Assembly: GCA_964016885.1 (NCBI GenBank)
Contig: OZ024762.1
Location: 22,506,001 to 22,570,000 of the forward strand
Reading direction: 5' to 3'
Length of the DNA stretch: 64,000 nt
Origin: Eledone cirrhosa
Taxonomy: Eukaryota
Position 1 is the first letter of the stretch. Every line of letters starts with the position of its first letter. A program made the translations under genes and the position numbers. Below the pieces are notes generated by a model. That model saw nothing but the letters and a program-made list of their open reading frames with translations, ran no database searches and was not told where the DNA came from. Below, piece after piece: positions 7,958 to 63,275 of this stretch.

Positions 7958-9050
7958 CTGAGTATACTGGAGCATGGTGAAATGAAATGTTTTGCTGAAG
8001 AACACAACACACAACCCAGTCAAAGAATCTAACACACTACAGTAGGATCGTAAGTCAAACAACCTTACCACTAGGCCACACACTTCCACTGAGTATACTG
8101 GAGCATGGTGAAATGAAATGTTTTGCTGAAGAACACAGTATACTGGAGCATGGTGAAATGAAATGTTTTGCCGAAGAACACAACACACAACCCAGTCAAA
8201 GAATCTAACACACTACAGTAGGATCGTAAGACCAACAACCTTACCACTAGGCCACACACCTCCACTGAGTATACTGGAGCATGGTGAAATGAAATGTTTT
8301 GCTGAAGAACACAACACACAACCCAGTCAAAGAATCTAACACACTACAGTAGGATCGTAAGACCAACAACCTTACCACTAGGCCACACACCTCCACTGAG
8401 TATACTGGAGCATGGTGAAATGAAATGTTTTGCTGAAGAACACAACACACAACCCAGTCAAAGAATCTAACACACTACAGTAGGATCGTAAGACCAACAA
8501 CCTTACCACTAGGCCACACACCTCCACTGAGTATACTGGAGCATGGTGAAATGAAATGTTTTGCTGAAGAACACAACACACAACCCAGTCAAAGAATCTA
8601 ACACACTACAGTAGGATCGTAAGACCAACAACCTTACCACTAGGCCACACACCTCCACTGAGTATACTGGAGCATGGTGAAATGAAATGTTTTGCTGAAG
8701 AACACAACACACAACCCAGTCAAAGAATCTAACACACTACAGTAGGATCGTAAGACCAACAACCTTACCACTAGGCCACAAACCTCCACTGAGTATACTG
8801 GAGCAACGTGAAACAATGTGTTTTGCCGAAGGAATGAACACACAACCCAGTCAAAGAATCTAAACCACTACATTAGGATCGTAAGACCAACAACCTTACC
8901 ACTAGGCCACACACTTCCACTGAGTATACTGGAGCAACGTGAAATAATGTGTTTTGCTGAAGGAATGAACACACAACCCAGTCAAAGAATCTAACCCACT
9001 ACATTACGATTGTAAGACCAACATCCTTACCACGGGGCCACGCGTCTCCA
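7958..9050 (-). repeat. 131-bp tandem array derived from the SINE head (~8 copies)
   Basis: Identical ORFs recur at 131-bp spacing (8450, 8581, 8712, 8843); the unit aligns to the adjacent SINE 5' part. Confidence 0.92.
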
Positions 9051-14382: not shown

Positions 14383-15395
14383 AAACTTGACTATCAACAC
14401 ATGAACTGTGGAACTAGTACCAACTTTGACTATCAACACATGAACTGTGGAACTAGTACCAACTTTACTATCAACACACCAACTGTGGAACTAGTACCAA
14501 CTTTGACTATCAACACACAAACTGTGGAACTAGTACCAACTTTACTATCAACACACAAACTGTGGAACTAGTACCAACTTTACTATCAACACACAAACTG
14601 TGGAACTAGTACCAACTTTGACTATCAACACACAAACTGTGGAACTAGTACCAACTTTGACTATCAACACACAAACTGTGGAACTAGTACCAACTTTGAC
14701 TATCAACACACAAACTGTGGAAATAGTACCAACTTTGACTATCAACACACCAACTGTGGAACTAGTACCAACTTTGACTATCAACACACAAACTGTGGAA
14801 CTAGTACCAACTTTGACTATCAACACACAAACTGTGGAACTAGTACCAACTTTGACTATCAACACACAAACTGTGGAACTAGTACCAACTTTGACTATCA
14901 ACACATGAACTGTGGAACTAGTACCAACTTTGACTATCAACACACAAACTGTGGAACTAGTACCAACTTTACTATCAACACACAAACTGTGGAACTAGTA
15001 CCAACTTTGACTATCAACACACAAACTGTGGAACTAGTACCAACTTTGACTATCAACACACAAACTGTGGAACTAGTACCAACTTTGACTATCAACACAC
15101 AAACTGTGGAACTAGTACCAACTTTGACTATCAACACATGAACTGTGGAACTAGTACCAACTTTGACTATCAACACATGAACTGTGGAACTAGTACCAAC
15201 GTTACTATCAACACACAAACTGTGGAACTAGTACCGACTTTGACTATCAACACACAAACTGTGGAACTAGTACCAACTTTGACTATCAACACATGAACTG
15301 TGGAACTAGTACCAACTTTGACTATCAACACACAAACTGTGGAACTAGTACCAACTTTGACTATCAACCCATGAACTGTGGAACTAGTACCAACT
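14383..15395. repeat. 39-bp minisatellite (~26 copies, 38-bp variants)
   Basis: Unit aactgtggaactagtaccaactttgactatcaacacaca. Confidence 0.97.
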
Positions 15396-15599
15396 TGTCC
15401 ACTTACTCATGCCGCTACTATTTATATGTCGTGGTCCAGCCCATTCTGACCAGGGGCCACAGTACTCTCGCACAACAGGATGAAACGCAAAGGTCTGAAT
15501 GCATCAGATGCTTTCCATAGAAGGATAGAAAATTGACGGGCCAAGGAAACAATGTTTCCATTGGTCTTGCCATTGCTGATACGATCTACCAGTCGCAGC

Positions 15600-16399: not shown

Positions 16400-16822
16400 A
16401 TTATTTATTTTTCAAAGGGTGGTGAATTGGCAGTATCGGTAGAGGGTTGGACGCCATGCTTTCTAGCATAGTTAAGTCCCTTTACGGTCTGAGTTCAAAT
16501 CCCGTCGAGGTAAACTTTGCCTTTCATCATTAAGGGGTCGATAAAATAAAGTACTAGTAATGACCTGGGTGATTGCTGGCCTTGTGCCAAAAGTAGAAAC
16601 AATTATTTATTTTTCAAAGGGTGGTGAATTGGCAGTATCGGTAGAGGGTTGGACGCCATGCTTTTTAGCATAGTTAAGTCCCTTTACGGTCTGAGTTCAA
16701 ATCCCGTCGAGGAAAACTTTGCCTTTCATCATTAAGGGGTCGATAAAATAAAGTACCAGTAATGAACTGGGGTAATTGCTGGCCTTGTGCCAAAAGTAGA
16801 AACAATTATTTATTTTTCAAAT
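16400..16822 (+). mobile_element. Tandem duplication of a SINE with its flank (~201-bp period)
   Basis: Two nearly identical copies, each preceded by ttatttatttttcaaa. Confidence 0.9.
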
Positions 16823-21804: not shown

Positions 21805-23190
21805 ACTATGGCCATGTGATTAGAATGTCCCAGGAAAGAATCCCTGGACAGATTTGTAGCTCGGAGATCAGAGAGTCACTCCAGGTAGAGCCGCTACTTC
21901 TCCGAATTGAGGGATCACAGTTCTGATACTATGGACATGTGGTTAGAATGTCTCAGGAAAGAATCACTGGACAGATTTGTAGATCAGAGAGTCACTCCAG
22001 GTAGAGCCACTATTTCTCCGAATTGAGGGATCACAGCTCCGATACTATGGACATGTGGTTAGAATGTCTCAGGAAAGAATCACTGGACAGATTTGTAGCT
22101 CAGAGATCAGAGAGTCACTCCAGGTTCAGCTGTTACTTCTCTGAATTTAGAGATGACAGCTCCGATACTATGGACATGTGGTTAGAATGTCTCAGGAAAG
22201 AATCACTGGACAGATTTGTAGCTCAGAGATCAGAGAGTCACTCCAGGTTCAGCTGTTACTTCTCTGAATTGAGAGATCACAGCTCTGATACTATGGACAT
22301 GTGGTTAGAATGTCTCAGGAAAGAATCACTGGACAGATTTGTAGCTCAGAGATCAGAGAGTCACTCCAGGTTCAGCTGTTACTTCTCTGAATTGAGAGAT
22401 CACAGCTCTGATACTATGGACATGTGGTTAGAATGTCTCAGGAAAGAATCACTGGACAGATTTGTAGCTCAGAGATCAGAGAATCACTCCAGGTTCAGCT
22501 GTTACTTCTCTGAATTGAGAGATCACAGCTCTGATACTATGGACATGTGGTTAGAATGTCTCAGGAAAGAATCACTGGACAGATTTGTAGCTCAGAGATC
22601 AGAGAGTCACTCCAGGTTCAGCTGTTACTTCTCTGAATTTAGAGATTACAGCTCCGATACTATGGAAATGTGGTTAGAATGTCTCAGGAAAGAATCACTG
22701 GACAGATTTGTAGCTCAGAGATCAGAGAGTCACTCCAGGTTCAGCTGTTACTTCTCTGAATTGAGAGATCACAGCTCTGATACTATGGACATGTGGTTAG
22801 AATGTCTCAGGAAAGAATCACTGGACAGATTTGTAGCTCAGAGATCAGAGAGTCACTCCAGGTTCAGCTGTTACTTCTCTGAATTTAGAGATTACAGCTC
22901 CGATACTATGGAATTGTGGTTAGAATGTCTCAGGAAAGAATCACTGGACAGATTTGTAGCTCAGAGATCAGAGAGTCACTCCAGGTTCAGCTGTTACTTC
23001 TCTGAATTGAGAGATCACAGCTCTGATACTATGGACATGTGGTTAGAATGTCTCAGGAAAGAATCACTGGACAGATTTGTAGCTCAGAGATCAGAGAGTC
23101 ACTCCAGGTTCAGCTGTTACTTCTCTGAATTTAGAGATTACAGCTCCGATACTATGGACATGTGGTTAGAATGTCTCAGGAAAGAATTGT
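21805..23190. repeat. 123-bp tandem array (~11 copies)
   Basis: gatactatgg at 22041, 22164 and onward; the 41-aa repeat ORF reflects the unit. Confidence 0.97.
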
Positions 23191-23384
23191 TGGACGGATT
23201 TTACAGGCAGGCGACCCAGGGGTAGAGCCTGAGCAAGATGGTTAGTTGGATAACATCCATGAGCTTGACTAGTCACGCTTGGGGATCCAGCCGGATCAGT
23301 TAGATATGGTTGCCTTTAACAGGGCCCACAGGGCGGCGTGTTTGAGGACTCTGTCCCCCACGACCCTCTCAGTAATAAGTGGGC

Positions 23385-28650: not shown

Positions 28651-28661
28651 CTAAATCACAC

Positions 28662-30440
28662 AGTCTAGGTTGTTTATCTCAGCTGTGGTAAGGAGTGACA
28701 GACTCTACACCCCAGTCTAGAAGGTTTATCAGAGCTGTGGTAGGGAGTGACAGACTCTACATCCCAGTCTAGGTGGTATATTTCAGCTGTGGTAGGGAGT
28801 GACAGACTCTACACCCCAGTTAAGGTGGTATATCTCAGCTGTGGTAGGGAGTAACAGACTCTACACCCCTGTCTAGGTGGTATATCTCAGCTGTGGTAGG
28901 GAGTGACAGACTCTACACCCCAGTTAAGGTGGTATATCTCAGCTGTGGTAGGGGGTAACAGACTCTACATCCCAGTCTAGGTGGTATATCTCAGCTGTGG
29001 TAGGGAGTGACAGACTCTACACCCCAGTCTAGGTGGTATATTTCAGCTGTGGTAGGGAGTGACAGACTATACACCCCAGTCTAGGTGGTATATCTCAGCT
29101 GTGGTAGGGAGTGACAGACTCTACACCCCAGTCTAGGTGGTATATCTCAGCTGTGGTAGGGAGTGACAGACTATACACCCCAGTCTAGGTGGTATATCTC
29201 AGCTGTGGTAGGGAGTGACAGACTATACACCCCAGTTAAGGTGGTATATCTCAGCTGTGGTAGGGAGTAACAGACTCTACACCCCAGTCTAGGTGGTATA
29301 TCTCAGCTGTGGTAGGGAGTGACAGACTCTACACCCCAGTTAAGGTGGTATATCTCAGCTGTGGTAGGGGGTAACAGACTCTACATCCCAGTCTTGGTGG
29401 TATATCTCAGCTGTGGTAGGGAGTGACAGACTCTACACCCCAGTCTAGGTGGTATATTTCAGCTGTGGTAGGGAGTGACAGACTATACACCCCAGTCTAG
29501 GTGGTATATCTCAGCTGTGGTAGGGAGTGACAGACTCTACACCCCAGTCTAGGTGGTATATCTCAGCTGTGGTAGGGAGTGACAGACTATACACCCCAGT
29601 CTAGGTGGTATATCTCAGCTGTGGTAGGGAGTGACAGACTATACACCCCAGTTAAGGTGGTATATCTCAGCTGTGGTAGGGAGTGACAGACTCTACATCC
29701 CAGTCTAGGTGGTATATCTCAGCTGTGGTAGGGAGTGACAGACTATACACCCCAGTCTAGGTGGTCTATTTCAGCTGTGGTAGGGAGTAACAGACTCTAC
29801 ACCCCAGTCTAGGTGGTATATTTCAGCTGTGGTAGGGAGTGACAGACTCTACACCCCAGTCTAGGTGGTATATCTCAGCTGTGGTAGGGAGTGACAGACT
29901 ATACACCCCAGTCTAGGTGGTATATCTCAGCTGTGGTAGGGAGTGACAGACTATACACCCCAGTTAAGGTGGTATATCTCAGCTGTGGTAGGGAGTGACA
30001 GACTCTACATCCCAGTCTAGGTGGTATATCTCAGCTGTGGTAGGGAGTGACAGACTCTACACCCCAGTTAAGGTGGTATATCTCAGCTGTGGTAGGGAGT
30101 GACAGACTATACACCCCAGTCTAGGTGGTATATCTCAGCTGTGGTAGGGAGTGACAGACTATACACCCCAGTTAAGGGGGTATATCTCAGCTGTGGTAGG
30201 GAGTGACAGACTCTACATCCCAGTCTAGGTGGTATATCTCAGCTGTGGTAGGGAGTGACAGACTATACACCCCAGTCTAGGTGGTCTATTTCAGCTGTGG
30301 TAGGGAGTAACAGACTCTACACCCCATTCTAGGTGGTCTATTTCAGCTGTGGTAGGGAGTAACAGACTCTACACCCCAGTCTAGGTTGTATATCACAGCT
30401 GTAAGTAACATACTCTATACCCCAGTCTAGTGGGTATATC
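28662..30440. repeat. 52-bp minisatellite (~34 copies)
   Basis: Unit cagctgtggtagggagtgacagactctacaccccagtctaggtggtatatct. Confidence 0.97.
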
Positions 30441-30587
30441 TCTGATGCGGATAGTAGACAAAATAGTGAAGATACTGCCGTGTAAAGAATGACGAGCGAC
30501 CCCACTACATCAACCATTCATTCATTCTCCAAGGAACCCCTTACCTCATCACGAATGTACGCCTCCTAATTAATTATTATTATTATT

Positions 30588-30972
30588 GGGGGAGGATTGG
30601 CAGTATCGGTAGAGGGTTGGACGCCATGCTTTCTAGCATAGTTACGTCCCTTTACAGTCTGAGTTCAAATCCCGCCGAGGTTAACTTTGCCTTTCATCCT
30701 TATGGGGTCGATAAAATAAAGTACCAGTAATGTACTGGGTAATTGCTGGCCTTGTGCCTAAAGTAAAAACAATTATTATTGGGGGGTGGATTGGCAGTAT
30801 CGGTAGAGGGTCGGACGCCATGCTTTGACGCATAGAGTTACGGCGCTTGCCATTCCGAGTTCAAATCCCGCCGAGGTTAACTTTGCTTTTCATCCTTACG
30901 GGGTCGATAAAATACAGTACCAGTAATGCACTGGGTAATTGCTGGCCTTGTGCCTAAAGTAGAAACAATTAT
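30588..30972 (+). mobile_element. Two head-to-tail main-family SINE copies
   Basis: 30588-30778 and 30781-30972; different subfamily variants joined at attattatt. Confidence 0.9.
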
Positions 30973-30974
30973 TT

Positions 30975-38734: not shown

Positions 38735-40230
38735 AATCATTCCATCCTTGTCTCTGAGGGTCAGGAGTCATGGGCTTATGGACCAGCACTCTACATCTTT
38801 TCCTGTCTCTTGCCATTGTTGTACATTCCACCAAACTCCTTCCTGTCCATTCCTTAATATCATCTCTCCATCTCATTTTCTGCTGTCCCCTGGCCCTTTT
38901 TCCCCTGTATTCCTCCCTCCTCTCCATTCCGTAATATCATCTCTCCATCTCATTTTCTGCTGTCCCCTGGCCCTTTTTCCCCTGTATTCCTCCCTCCTCT
39001 CCATTCCGTAATATCATCTCTCCATCTCATTTTCTGCTGTCCCCTGGCCCTTTTTCCCCTGTATTCCTCCCTCCTCTCCATTCCGTAATATCATCTCTCC
39101 ATCTCATTTTCTGCTGTCCCCTGGCCCTTTTTCCCCTGTATTCCTCCCTCCTCTCCATTCCGTAATATCATCTCTCCATCTCATTTTCTGCTGTCCCCTG
39201 GCCCTTTTTCCCCTGTATTCCTCCCTCCTCTCCATTCCGTAATATCATCTCTCCATCTCATTTTCTGCTGTCCCCTGGCCCTTTTTCCCCTGTATTCCTC
39301 CCTCCTCTCCATTCCGTAATATCATCTCTCCATCTCATTTTCTGCTGTCCCCTGGCCCTTTTTCCCCTGTATTCCTCCCTCCTCTCCATTCCGTAATATC
39401 ATCTCTCCATCTCATTTTCTGCTGTCCCCTGGCCCTTTTTCCCCTGTATTCCTCCCTCCTCTCCATTCCGTAATATCATCTCTCCATCTCATTTTCTGCT
39501 GTCCCCTGGCCCTTTTTCCCCTGTATTCCTCCCTCCTCTCCATTCCGTAATATCATCTCTCCATCTCAATTTCTGCTGTCCCCTGGCCCTTTTTCCCCTG
39601 TATTCCTCCCTCCTCTCCATTCCGTAATATCATCTCTCCATCTCATTTTCTGCTGTCCCCTGGCCCTTTTTCCCCTGTATTCCTCCCTCCTCTCCATTCC
39701 GTAATATCATCTCTCCATCTCATTTTCTGCTGTCCCCTGGCCCTTTTTCCCCTGTATTCCTCCCTCCTCTCCATTCCGTAATATCATCTCTCCATCTCAT
39801 TTTCTGCTGTCCCCTGGCCCTTTTTCCCCTGTATTCCTCCCTCCTCTCCATTCCGTAATATCATCTCTCCATCTCATTTTCTGCTGTCCCCTGGCCCTTT
39901 TTCCCCTGTATTCCTCCCTCCTCTCCATTCCGTAATATCATCTCTCCATCTCATTTTCTGCTGTCCCCTGGCCCTTTTTCCCCTGTATTCCTCCCTCCTC
40001 TCCATTCCGTAATATCATCTCTCCATCTCATTTTCTGCTGTCCCCTGGCCCTTTTTCCCCTGTATTCCTCCCTCCTCTCCATTCCGTAATATCATCTCTC
40101 CATCTCATTTTCTGCTGTCCCCTGGCCCTTTTTCCCCTGTATTCCTCCCTCCTCTCCATTCCGTAATATCATCTCTCCATCTCCTTTTATGCCGTTCCCT
40201 GGCCCCTTTCCCCTGTATTTGTCCCTCAAG
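38735..40230 (-). repeat. RTE LINE 3' end with 77-bp unit amplified ~17.5 times
   Basis: gtaatatcat at 38931, 39008 and onward; translation GKRARGQQKMRWRDDIKEWTG...MARDRKR is an RTE-type C-terminus. Confidence 0.92.
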
Positions 40231-59250: not shown

Positions 59251-59746
59251 ATTAATATTTTAAATATTTCTCTGCACACAAGCTTCTATATCATACATAT
59301 AAAATACTATACAACCCCCATAATACTCTTGATTGCCCGCTTAAAGTGCTTATATTCCATATAACAGCTTACCGCACTATAATCTTATATAAATAAGACA
59401 CAGGTGCATGCCCCACGTGTAACTAACTACTTCTAACTATCCTCCTGCATCACCTTCATAAACTGCCAATGTTGTATTATAACTTCAATTTTGTTGTAAT
59501 TTTCTTTTAATATGACTTTAATCTTTAAATGTAAACTGCCATGTTTAAATATTATAATGGATGTCAACCCACTGTGCATCAATATATACATATGTTTCTG
59601 TATGTCTCTTGTGTTGAAAAGGAGGTCAAGTATGTAAACAATCATTGAAAAATTGGTTCGAAGACTCCAAACCTCGGTTTGGAAGAAACAATTGTAAGCG
59701 AATAAATGATTTGAACAGAACTTTGATTCATGTAATTTCTATATAA

Positions 59747-60586: not shown

Positions 60587-60630
<44 letters not shown>

Positions 60631-60635
<5 letters not shown>

Positions 60636-61539
60636 GACGTAAAATAAGAAAATTATAAAAATTAACTTACTAAAATTTCACTCCAACTAATTAGTTTCTG
60701 AAAGGGAATAAACATAGTTTCCGAAGAAACGTACGGAGAAGCCTTTCGTCATCAGAGAAGTCTATTCTCAGCTAAGTTTCCAGGCGATGCGTGGACACAG
60801 GGAACTTATACAAAAATAATTCAGTGGATGGAAAAAAGCAAAGCGTGGACTAAGTTCCAAGATATTGAAAAAATCACTGCCTACAGCGTCGGTGGCAAAT
60901 TCAAAAGAATCAATCACGTGACATCGAGGTTAATCAGTGAGGAGTGGTTTGTTAAGAAGACAGCAGCCGAACCATTACTATGAAATATAGTAGCAGTTTT
61001 GGCCAATTTTGGCTCAACAAAATAATTTGGAGATAATTATAAAGAATTAGTATATCTACTAACATATATATACAGATGCATACTTATGCCAGCAAATATA
61101 TAGGTTTTGTCTTAGTAACTTTGTGGTTCAATGCAAGGGGATGCAGAACAATACTATGAAAGACGTCGACGCAATAGGCAGTGATTTGTTCAATGTCTTG
61201 GAACTTAGTCCACGCTTTGCTTTTTTCCATCCACTGAATTATTTTTGTATAAGTTCCCTGTGTCCACGCATCGCTTGGAAACTTAGCTGAGAATAGACTT
61301 CCCTGATGACGAAAGGCTTCTCCGTATGTTTCTTCGGAAACTATGTTTATTCCCTTTCAGAAACTAATTAGTTGGAGTGAAATTTTAGTAAGTTAATTTT
61401 TATAATTTTCTTATTTTACGTCTTTCATATTATTGTTCTGCATCCCCATGCATTGAACCACAAAGTTACTAAGACAAAACCTATATATTTGCTGGCATAA
61501 GTATGCACCTGTATATATATGTTAGTAGATATACTAATT

Positions 61540-61543
<4 letters not shown>
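60631..61543. mobile_element. Family I element: inverted, circularly permuted 526-bp unit joined to a forward arm plus tail
   Basis: 60631-60891 inverted versus 61167-61427; 61042-61166 inverted versus 61417-61543; tgaaagacgt at 60631 and 61157. Confidence 0.9.
61290..61352 (+). ncRNA. Atypical hammerhead candidate (I); mirror on - at ~60705-60768
   Basis: CTGATGA cgaa...ttcg GAAA ctatg TT tattc; stem I (gaata/tattc) is offset by 7 nt. Confidence 0.4.
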
Positions 61544-61609
<66 letters not shown>

Positions 61610-61963
61610 CATACATATATATCATACATATATAATACACACATATATATAAATATGTATATAGATATGCATACATATAAGTATATATATATTTATATAT
61701 ATATATATATATGTGTGTATATATATATGTATATATGTATATATGTACATATATATACATGTACATGTATATGTATATATATATATATGTACATATATAT
61801 ATGTATATATGTATATATATATATATATATATATGTACATATATATATATATGTACATTTATATATATGTACATAAATATATATATATGTACATATATAT
61901 ATATATACATATATATATATGTACATATATATATGTACATATATATATATGTACATATATATA

Positions 61964-62003
<40 letters not shown>

Positions 62004-62065: not shown

Positions 62066-63275
62066 CAGCTCACATGTGGACGTGATATATCTTGACTTTG
62101 CGAAGTCCTTTGACAAGGTCGATTACGGAATGATATGTCACAAACTACACAAACTCGGCATAACTGGAAATGTAGGTGAGTGGCTGCACGACTTCTTAAA
62201 GGCAGAAGCCAGACAGTCGCAGAAATCGGGGCCCTATCAAAAGAAACATCAATAACAAGTGGGATGCCTCAAAGCACAGTCCTGGACCACTACTGTTTTT
62301 GGTGCCTCTCTCAGACATGCCCCCTGTTGTACATACAACAACATCCCTTTCTAGCTATGCTGATGACACTAAGGTAGCACAGGCAATCAAAACCCGGCTG
62401 ACGCTGCCTTTTTACAACAAGATCTGGATGTCATATACAAATGGGCGGAAGACAACAACATGCAGTTTAATGCTGGCAAATTCAAAGCCCTTCAATACAA
62501 ACCTGCAAATACAGTACAACACAGTTACGCAGGACCAGGAGGGACCGATATTCCCGTGGCAAAATCGATACGAGACCTGAGCGATGATGCATCTTTTGCC
62601 TCACACATCACGAAAGTGGCGACAATGTGCAGACGTCTCTCTGGCTGGACCTTGAGGACTTTCCGGACAAGAGACCGCGACACCCTGTTGAAACCCATGG
62701 AGGACATTTGTCCTAAGCCGCCTGGACTATTGCTCCCAGTTGTGGTCACCCCATAGTGTCAAACTAACCACGGAGCTTGAGGCAATCCAGTGAAGCTACA
62801 CCAAGAGGATTACCACGATGAAGGAGATAAGCTACTGGGAGAGGCTAAAAGAACTGAACCTCTACTCCTTGGAACGAAGACGGGAGAGATACGCAGTGAT
62901 CTACATGTGGACAATCCTGGAGGGACTAGCACCAAACTTTGGCATTGGTGTCAAAGGTCCCGTTTTCTACATCTAGAATAAGGAGCAGAATTTGCAATAG
63001 CCTGGGGTTCAAGGGTCCTCAACTCTTCAACAAGCTGCCGAGGGATCTGAGAGATCTGCATGGTGTGGCGGTGGATGTCTTCAAGAAACATCTCGATACC
63101 TTCCTATCCAGGATCCCGGATGAGCCCACAGCAAGGCACGAGGGAAACCTAAGGGCAGCAGCAACAAAATCTCTCTTACACCAGTGGCAACCAATACAGG
63201 CTGGAGATAAAATGTGTAGCAACAAGGGCGGTGCCCCAGCATGGCCTCAGCGGGATGGCTGGAACAGGTAAAAGA
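62066..63275 (+). mobile_element. CR1-type LINE, RT to 3' end, frameshifted
   Basis: [58 protein letters not shown]. Confidence 0.88.

Follow-up and report, generated by a model that had tools for sequence, protein, structure and literature searches.

How an element with no coding capacity came to be written twice, in opposite directions, into a single (TA)n tract is the question raised by the locus at 60631–61546 of our window, the 64,000-nt stretch of the Eledone cirrhosa genome (assembly GCA_964016885.1, contig OZ024762.1) that was analysed here. The longest open reading frame (ORF) inside the element is 55 aa long, and neither a reverse transcriptase (RT) nor a GIY-YIG ORF of a Penelope-like element (PLE) is present. 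A first-pass annotation of the locus had noticed that the minus strand from 61166 to 60631 makes a full 526-bp turn with the same ten letters at both ends, and the sequence agrees: these 536 nt are one 526-nt turn plus 10 nt, with ACGTCTTTCA present at both the start and the end. Unit coordinates are counted on this strand (u1 = 61166). The plus arm, 61167 to about 61546, aligns with u276–526 and then u1–129 at 97% identity. It had been read as an extra piece fused to the turn; the forward arm is certainly there, and together with the minus arm it makes up an outward-facing pair with different 3′ ends, A and B. The two arms abut 5′-to-5′ at 61166/61167 and both enter (TA)n (Table 1). Each arm has one hammerhead, the two point in opposite directions, and the locus is without two consecutive tandem hammerheads.

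Table 1. Features of the head-to-head insertion and its target, in window coordinates
Feature	Position	Strand	Basis
Left (TA)n target microsatellite	60594..60630	.	sequence
Arm A, 5′-truncated, one 526-nt turn + 10 nt, 3′ end at site A, tail-less	60631..61166	-	
Site A (u10–12), putative first reverse-transcription start; last TA common to the microsatellite	60629..60640	-	99/237 arms stop at u12
Arm A type I hammerhead; predicted cut 60685/60684	60680..60761	-	sequence comparison
u130–275, ordinary family sequence, once at the locus	60892..61037	-	
Tail u13–129, internal in arm A, running on into u130	61038..61154	-	
Blunt head-to-head (5′-to-5′) junction of the arms	61166..61167	.	
Arm B, 5′-truncated, u276–526 + u1–129, 3′ end at site B, tailed	61167..61546	+	
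Arm B type I hammerhead	61297..61378	+	sequence comparison; no Rfam match
117-nt tail between sites A and B; two predicted hairpins, the longer at about u63–116	61430..61546	+	
Right (TA)n-rich target microsatellite	61543..62000	.	sequence

The locus is one of thousands of copies of an ORF-less repeat of about 530 nt with a predicted self-cutting ribozyme. A similarity search of the same genome (3.0 Gb, 1,796 contigs) gave at least 136 matches, the locus itself included, with 40 of 2,427 candidates scored; 46 of the 136 matches listed span essentially the whole 521-nt query at 95–100% identity. The direct joining of the tail to the upstream segment at about 61040, which the first-pass annotation had pointed out, recurs in these near full-length copies, and the segment 60892–61040, whose relation to the family had been left as the critical point, is family sequence. 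An exact 19-mer lying just after the ribozyme has 3,493 matches and the exact pattern of an A end followed by TA has at least 2,753, the reversed-pattern control giving 0 in both cases. The unit has a GC content of 35%, and most units are about 530 nt long; the length varies by 4 nt, and the copy at 60631–61546 has the shorter version.

Our counts come from 139 distinct loci with 238 arms: 88 loci were found through similarity and pattern searches, 12 through a tail pattern and 39 on account of a B end, the latter drawn from 40 of the first 100 B-end places listed. Duplicates were removed before counting (12 of 100 loci and 18 of 70 loci). One locus had been retrieved more than once: L178 replaces L177 and L180 in the template counts, L177 stands for the locus in the end-pairing count, and none of them is in the end-position count. 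L037 and L092, which are unrelated neighbours, were omitted from the cross-arm tests. The arms reach up to four turns, 93 of 238 exceeding one unit and 10 of 238 exceeding two, in samples partly biased toward long copies.

Each unit carries a structurally conserved type I hammerhead, for which cleavage is predicted. The motif had been placed at 61290–61352 at first; a hammerhead does lie there, with a true span of 61297–61378. In arm B the CUGAUGA box occupies 61303–61309 and the catalytic GAAAC 61360–61364, and the cut is predicted at 61373/61374 after GUU, which is a weaker triplet than GUC; the GAAAC near 61337 sits in a hairpin inside stem II and is not the catalytic one. The predicted fold consists of stem I, CUGAUGA, a C-A mismatch, a stem II of 6 bp that continues into a second helix, and GAAA; the long stem II carries a UUCG-capped hairpin and stem III is a 12-nt palindrome. 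The arm A hammerhead has a single C-to-U change beside the core with the wobble pair retained. Core letters are 96–100% conserved over about 146–176 segments, the distal part of stem II being variable. Over 62 distinct sequences 97.7% of 992 stem cells are paired, with 61 double-sided changes, counts which overstate independence because the sequences are related and the structure was drawn from the same sequences that were later scored for covariation; none of 500 shuffles scored as high, and slid structures were 23–46% paired. Length variants of stem I, as judged by eye, compensate each other between subfamilies. The Rfam search returned no hammerhead match at E ≤ 10, the matches being low-complexity miRNA ones. 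Folding of the 131-nt hammerhead region is no more stable than that of its shuffles (z −0.65), and in its minimum free energy structure the core is paired away; the whole unit folds better than 100 of 100 shuffles (z −3.57). Hammerheads found beside autonomous PLEs in the same genome also have a mismatch at the base of stem II, a palindromic stem III and GUU or GUA-type triplets.

The anatomy of the insertions is of the PLE type, in a non-LTR retrozyme. There are two fixed 3′ ends, sites A and B, 117 nt apart, and the tail u13–129 lies between them. Among the first 88 loci, site A (u4–14) is the end of 71 arms and site B (u116–134) that of 64, with 11 arms ending elsewhere, and (TA)n follows 128 of the 135 A or B ends (146 arms in all). 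The exact end is u12 in 99 of 237 arms and u129 in 96, 39 loci having been pre-selected for a B end. Head-to-head, two-armed insertions account for 54 of the 88 loci of the first set and for 86 of 139 overall. The pairing of their ends is close to a rule: 76 of the 86 combine A with B, none combines A with A, two combine B with B and eight have a non-standard end. Both of the B+B loci have one end outside TA, and among the loci selected for a B end 24 of 27 two-armed ones are clean A+B. A short TA match to the target (2–4 nt) is available at A as well as at B. The longer TA run at about u95–103 is unused as a 3′ end, so that the end position would be set by something else, probably the tail hairpins.

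At their other ends the arms are 5′-truncated, and 181 such ends scatter over the unit, with 2 of them at u1. The 10-nt redundancy of arm A is therefore a chance truncation point, and the argument that had been built on one turn plus about 10 bp fails; the idea of a retrozyme-like, ORF-less unit copied from a circular or tandem RNA is supported at the level of the family, not by the length of this copy. A modest excess of 5′ ends at u436–454 (61327–61345, the UUCG-capped stem II hairpin; 17 against 8 expected, in a window chosen post hoc) could reflect an RT pause or a transcript start. A further excess at u494–497 is probably an alignment artefact at the 4-nt indel and was set aside. Where the two arms meet, 19 of 39 insert-free junctions overlap by at least 2 nt against about 21% by chance, the mean being 2.5 with and 1.9 without a single 24-nt outlier, in a count that scores many mismatched ends as inserts (47 of 86). 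Several of the junction inserts are local duplications.

The arms and turns of one locus have rare alleles in common about 30–60 times more often than chance would give. Subfamily alleles are common to the turns in 358 of 510 comparisons and to the arms in 461 of 627; between loci the figure is 11%, and neither kind of turn is favoured (77 versus 83). Locus-private alleles, private here among 139 of thousands of loci, are common to turns 22 times in 24,680 columns (14 of 67 loci) and to arms 11 times in 25,574 columns (11 of 67 loci), with about 0.4 expected in each case; gene conversion could be another source of such sharing, and conversion or local expansion could homogenise the turns. The arms pass the cleavage site 263 times with no pile-up of 5′ ends: u482–484 holds 3 of 181, where 1.4 are expected (p = 0.16). 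Out of 173 passes 124 are identical in sequence and 13 show a subfamily variant, with hardly any scars. The longest array among the sampled loci (L178:543-2602, G000:C1:289.726 Mb) has four 518-nt turns with a common 7-nt deletion, which differ from each other by one substitution and one 4-nt indel; its best match among the other sampled copies is 96.1% over 408 nt, the closest of these copies being 4–5% different. On account of the shared alleles, the lack of a 5′ pile-up at the cleavage site, the nearly scar-free junction and the turns of this array, we lean towards a ligated monomer circle as the template rather than an uncleaved multimer. Such a circle would close at the hammerhead site and not at about 61040, so that the back-splice search suggested by the first-pass annotation would look in the wrong place, and a back-splice circle was rejected.

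The alternative that survives best retains the same element and the same two-ended PLE priming and takes the template to be uncleaved linear read-through RNA of a young tandem copy, any circles being side products. Truncation of A arms is indeed not memoryless, the rate of 0.27–0.29 per 200 nt rising to 0.72 beyond 600 nt, and few arms go beyond two turns; this rise would suit a linear multimer of small size, or else stalling once a turn is complete. In-register matches between arms are slightly commoner than out-of-register ones (51 versus 38), a difference that is not significant (p = 0.20), and the excess at u436–454 would serve as a transcript start. Hammerhead cleavage was dispensable in an in vitro system in which unprocessed RNA was the main substrate (PMC11167929). 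Against this, linear copying would only shorten arrays, alleles common to all turns without turn bias would need a one-monomer bottleneck or conversion, and the hammerhead stems are maintained by compensatory change. Altogether we consider the linear template rather unlikely.

Linear monomers released by the hammerhead, with the RT jumping from the 5′ end of one to the 3′ end of another, would also yield shared alleles, and for a few arms the cut is indeed the starting point (L029; about 3 of 20 distinct places among the matches listed). RT jumps usually leave bases added or lost, and the near absence of scars in the 173 passes, together with the lack of a significant 5′-end pile-up at the cut, makes this route improbable. 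An origin at the DNA level, as a MITE- or Helitron-like element, a local duplication, a fold-back or an assembly error, is very improbable and as a general mechanism largely excluded: the TA-flanked inverted arms are MITE-like and the four turns of L178, nearly identical as they are, might have arisen by local expansion, but arm lengths and 5′ ends vary freely, the 3′ ends are fixed and unequal, and the RNA structure is conserved. At the locus 60631–61546 neither arm is contained in the other, which rejects a fold-back, including that of a single cDNA. Mobilisation of a SINE-like RNA by an ordinary LINE, with inversion through twin priming, is hardly credible, since, despite decayed LINE-like RT remnants close by and the 5′ truncation, inversion and junction microhomology that LINE insertions commonly show, the starts of both arms are fixed sites inside the unit, the arms share part of their sequence and run across the unit boundary, and the element has no poly(A) or simple 3′ tail of its own.

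The insertion by way of a ligated circle may be pictured as follows. Read-through RNA of a tandem copy would cleave itself at two hammerheads, and the monomer so released would be ligated into a circle. A PLE protein with RT and GIY-YIG domains, probably as a dimer on the A–B tail, would cleave a (TA)n tract on both strands; priming would take place at site A from one DNA end and at site B from the other, aided by the 2–4 nt TA match, and each cDNA would travel round the circle for a variable distance before the two cDNA ends are joined through microhomology or end-joining repair. The sequence-level comparisons agree in making the family, very probably, a non-LTR retrozyme mobilised by a PLE. 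That the whole course of events, circle included, is a non-autonomous, Penelope-dependent retrozyme insertion seems to us somewhat more probable than its contrary. The most specific version is put forward tentatively, as a possibility that falls short of an even chance: a single circular retrozyme RNA would offer two different fixed start sites, one for each end of a double-strand break in (TA)n, and a PLE enzyme acting as a dimer would prime from both and roll on round the circle.

The kind of element is already known, and it is not an autonomous PLE. Metazoan non-LTR retrozymes, as described in PMC7229834 and bioRxiv 10.64898/2026.07.22.740005, are likewise ORF-less and low in GC, with one type I hammerhead, and occur in thousands of copies as dispersed monomers to short tandems in genomes that also contain PLEs. 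The present unit, at 526–530 nt, is longer than the 150–450 bp given in the former account and within the 51–972 bp of the latter. RNA expression and circles have been shown for metazoan retrozymes (PMC7229834; bioRxiv 10.64898/2026.07.22.740005), whereas the Eledone family is described here from genome sequence. Two consecutive tandem hammerheads are used as the mark of an active element (bioRxiv 10.64898/2026.07.22.740005), and such pairs are present at other Eledone loci (L005, L014, L021 and L178). The words "inverted", "microsatellite" and "octopus" do not occur in the searched text of PMC7229834, and the main text of bioRxiv 10.64898/2026.07.22.740005, as far as available, describes no head-to-head insertions or tail. 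In the literature searched, mostly open-access, we found no account of this family, nor any count of how A and B ends pair in a retrozyme; a catalogue entry for the family may already exist.

The likeness to endonuclease-containing PLEs, as these are portrayed in PMC8557442 and PMC3846280, extends to 5′ truncation, partial tandems, an adjacent inverted 5′-truncated copy, a tail at one end only and a hammerhead upstream of the 3′ ends. In these PLEs the tail is often confined to one end, and inverted copies most commonly stand head-to-head (PMC8557442; PMC3846280), which has been explained through self-priming on an antisense template (PMC3846280). A (TA)n preference like that of the Eledone retrozyme is reported for Naiads, and the PLE tail is 30–40 bp long (PMC8557442; PMC3846280), against 117 nt in the Eledone retrozyme, which is without an RT or GIY-YIG ORF. 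The closest mechanistic parallel is Poseidon PAc of Anolis in vitro, for which two internal RT start sites define a tail with a hammerhead upstream, the target is AT-rich, both strands are cut and extended, and a dimer is predicted (PMC11167929). For PAc no difference in start site between strands and no homology to the target are reported (PMC11167929); the Eledone two-armed loci, in contrast, nearly always combine A with B, each of which has a short TA match. Non-autonomous Chlamys elements, e.g., MRC1, are also PLE derivatives with pLTRs and multicopy head-to-tail insertions, but belong to green algae, have no canonical hammerhead and share 3′ similarity with a known autonomous partner (PMC8557442).

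Unlike the case of MRC1, no autonomous partner sharing sequence with the Eledone unit was found in 70 stretches round GIY-YIG matches, of which the genome search listed 150 out of 10,597 candidates; no pLTR homologous to the unit was seen in these stretches, 30 of which reach just 1.5 kb from the match. The same 70 stretches contain several PLE families with hammerheads of their own, none found sharing unit sequence. Matches to the unit in L118, L139, L155 and L167 were considered as a partner; judging from a full reading of L139 and a partial one of the others, they seem to be ordinary copies of the family in the neighbourhood. A PLE with a C-terminal endonuclease is the more likely partner, since Naiads are without canonical hammerheads. 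One autonomous, RT-encoding PLE (L133, with RVT_1 and GIY-YIG matches) has the tailed/untailed head-to-head layout in (TA)n. In L093/L151, 63 nt of the retrozyme tail are joined, with about 1 nt of overlap, to a 5′-truncated ORF of the L133 family, and in L151 (9531-9901 and below; G000:C1:70.78 Mb) a retrozyme A arm stands head-to-head with this tail–PLE fusion; a template switch accounts for the fusion as well as a nested insertion with deletion does, so that it is not taken as evidence.

Many distinct type I hammerheads were seen near GIY-YIG matches (L111, L132, L134, L141, L159, L162, L163, L169, L171 and L173–L175), several of them in head-to-head pairs, which points to more PLE or retrozyme families in the genome. 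Two further loci (L136 and L146) are whole-element palindromes of 3.3–3.8 kb, with two head-to-head PLE ORF arms 97–99.7% identical. Within the window, a degenerate hammerhead-like motif with a hairpin and a palindromic stem III at 59640–59740 ends in (TA)n and by eye resembles the flank of L131; a second family of PLEs or retrozymes that targets TA may have left it behind. A decayed RT fragment, recognised by eye and presumably LINE-like, follows the TA tract and lies at 62066–63260. Related tandem dimers of about 200 nt at 16400–16821 and 30579–30973 are what we take to be a tRNA-type SINE. The window also contains young minisatellite arrays (92–99% matches) at 8137–9041, 14387–15396, 21805–23201, 28661–30442 and 38836–40227, with periods of 131, 39, 123, 52 and 77 nt, respectively.

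Retrozyme circles are already known as RNA, and the dependence of retrozymes on PLEs has so far been argued from co-occurrence and pLTR phylogeny. The origin of the tandem and inverted structures of PLEs themselves has been called undefined (PMC8557442). In the Eledone family thousands of short, alignable insertions make end pairing, template sharing and truncation countable, and from so many copies the way in which Penelope-type enzymes write the two ends of an insertion can be read with unusual clarity. The near-strict rule of one A end and one B end is a sharp prediction for the existing in vitro PLE assays. If the proposed mechanism is true, the tail, the tandem copies and the inverted arrangement would be explained by one mechanism, retrozyme circles would be tied directly to the PLE machinery, and the insertions would constitute a large natural record of the PLE integration step.
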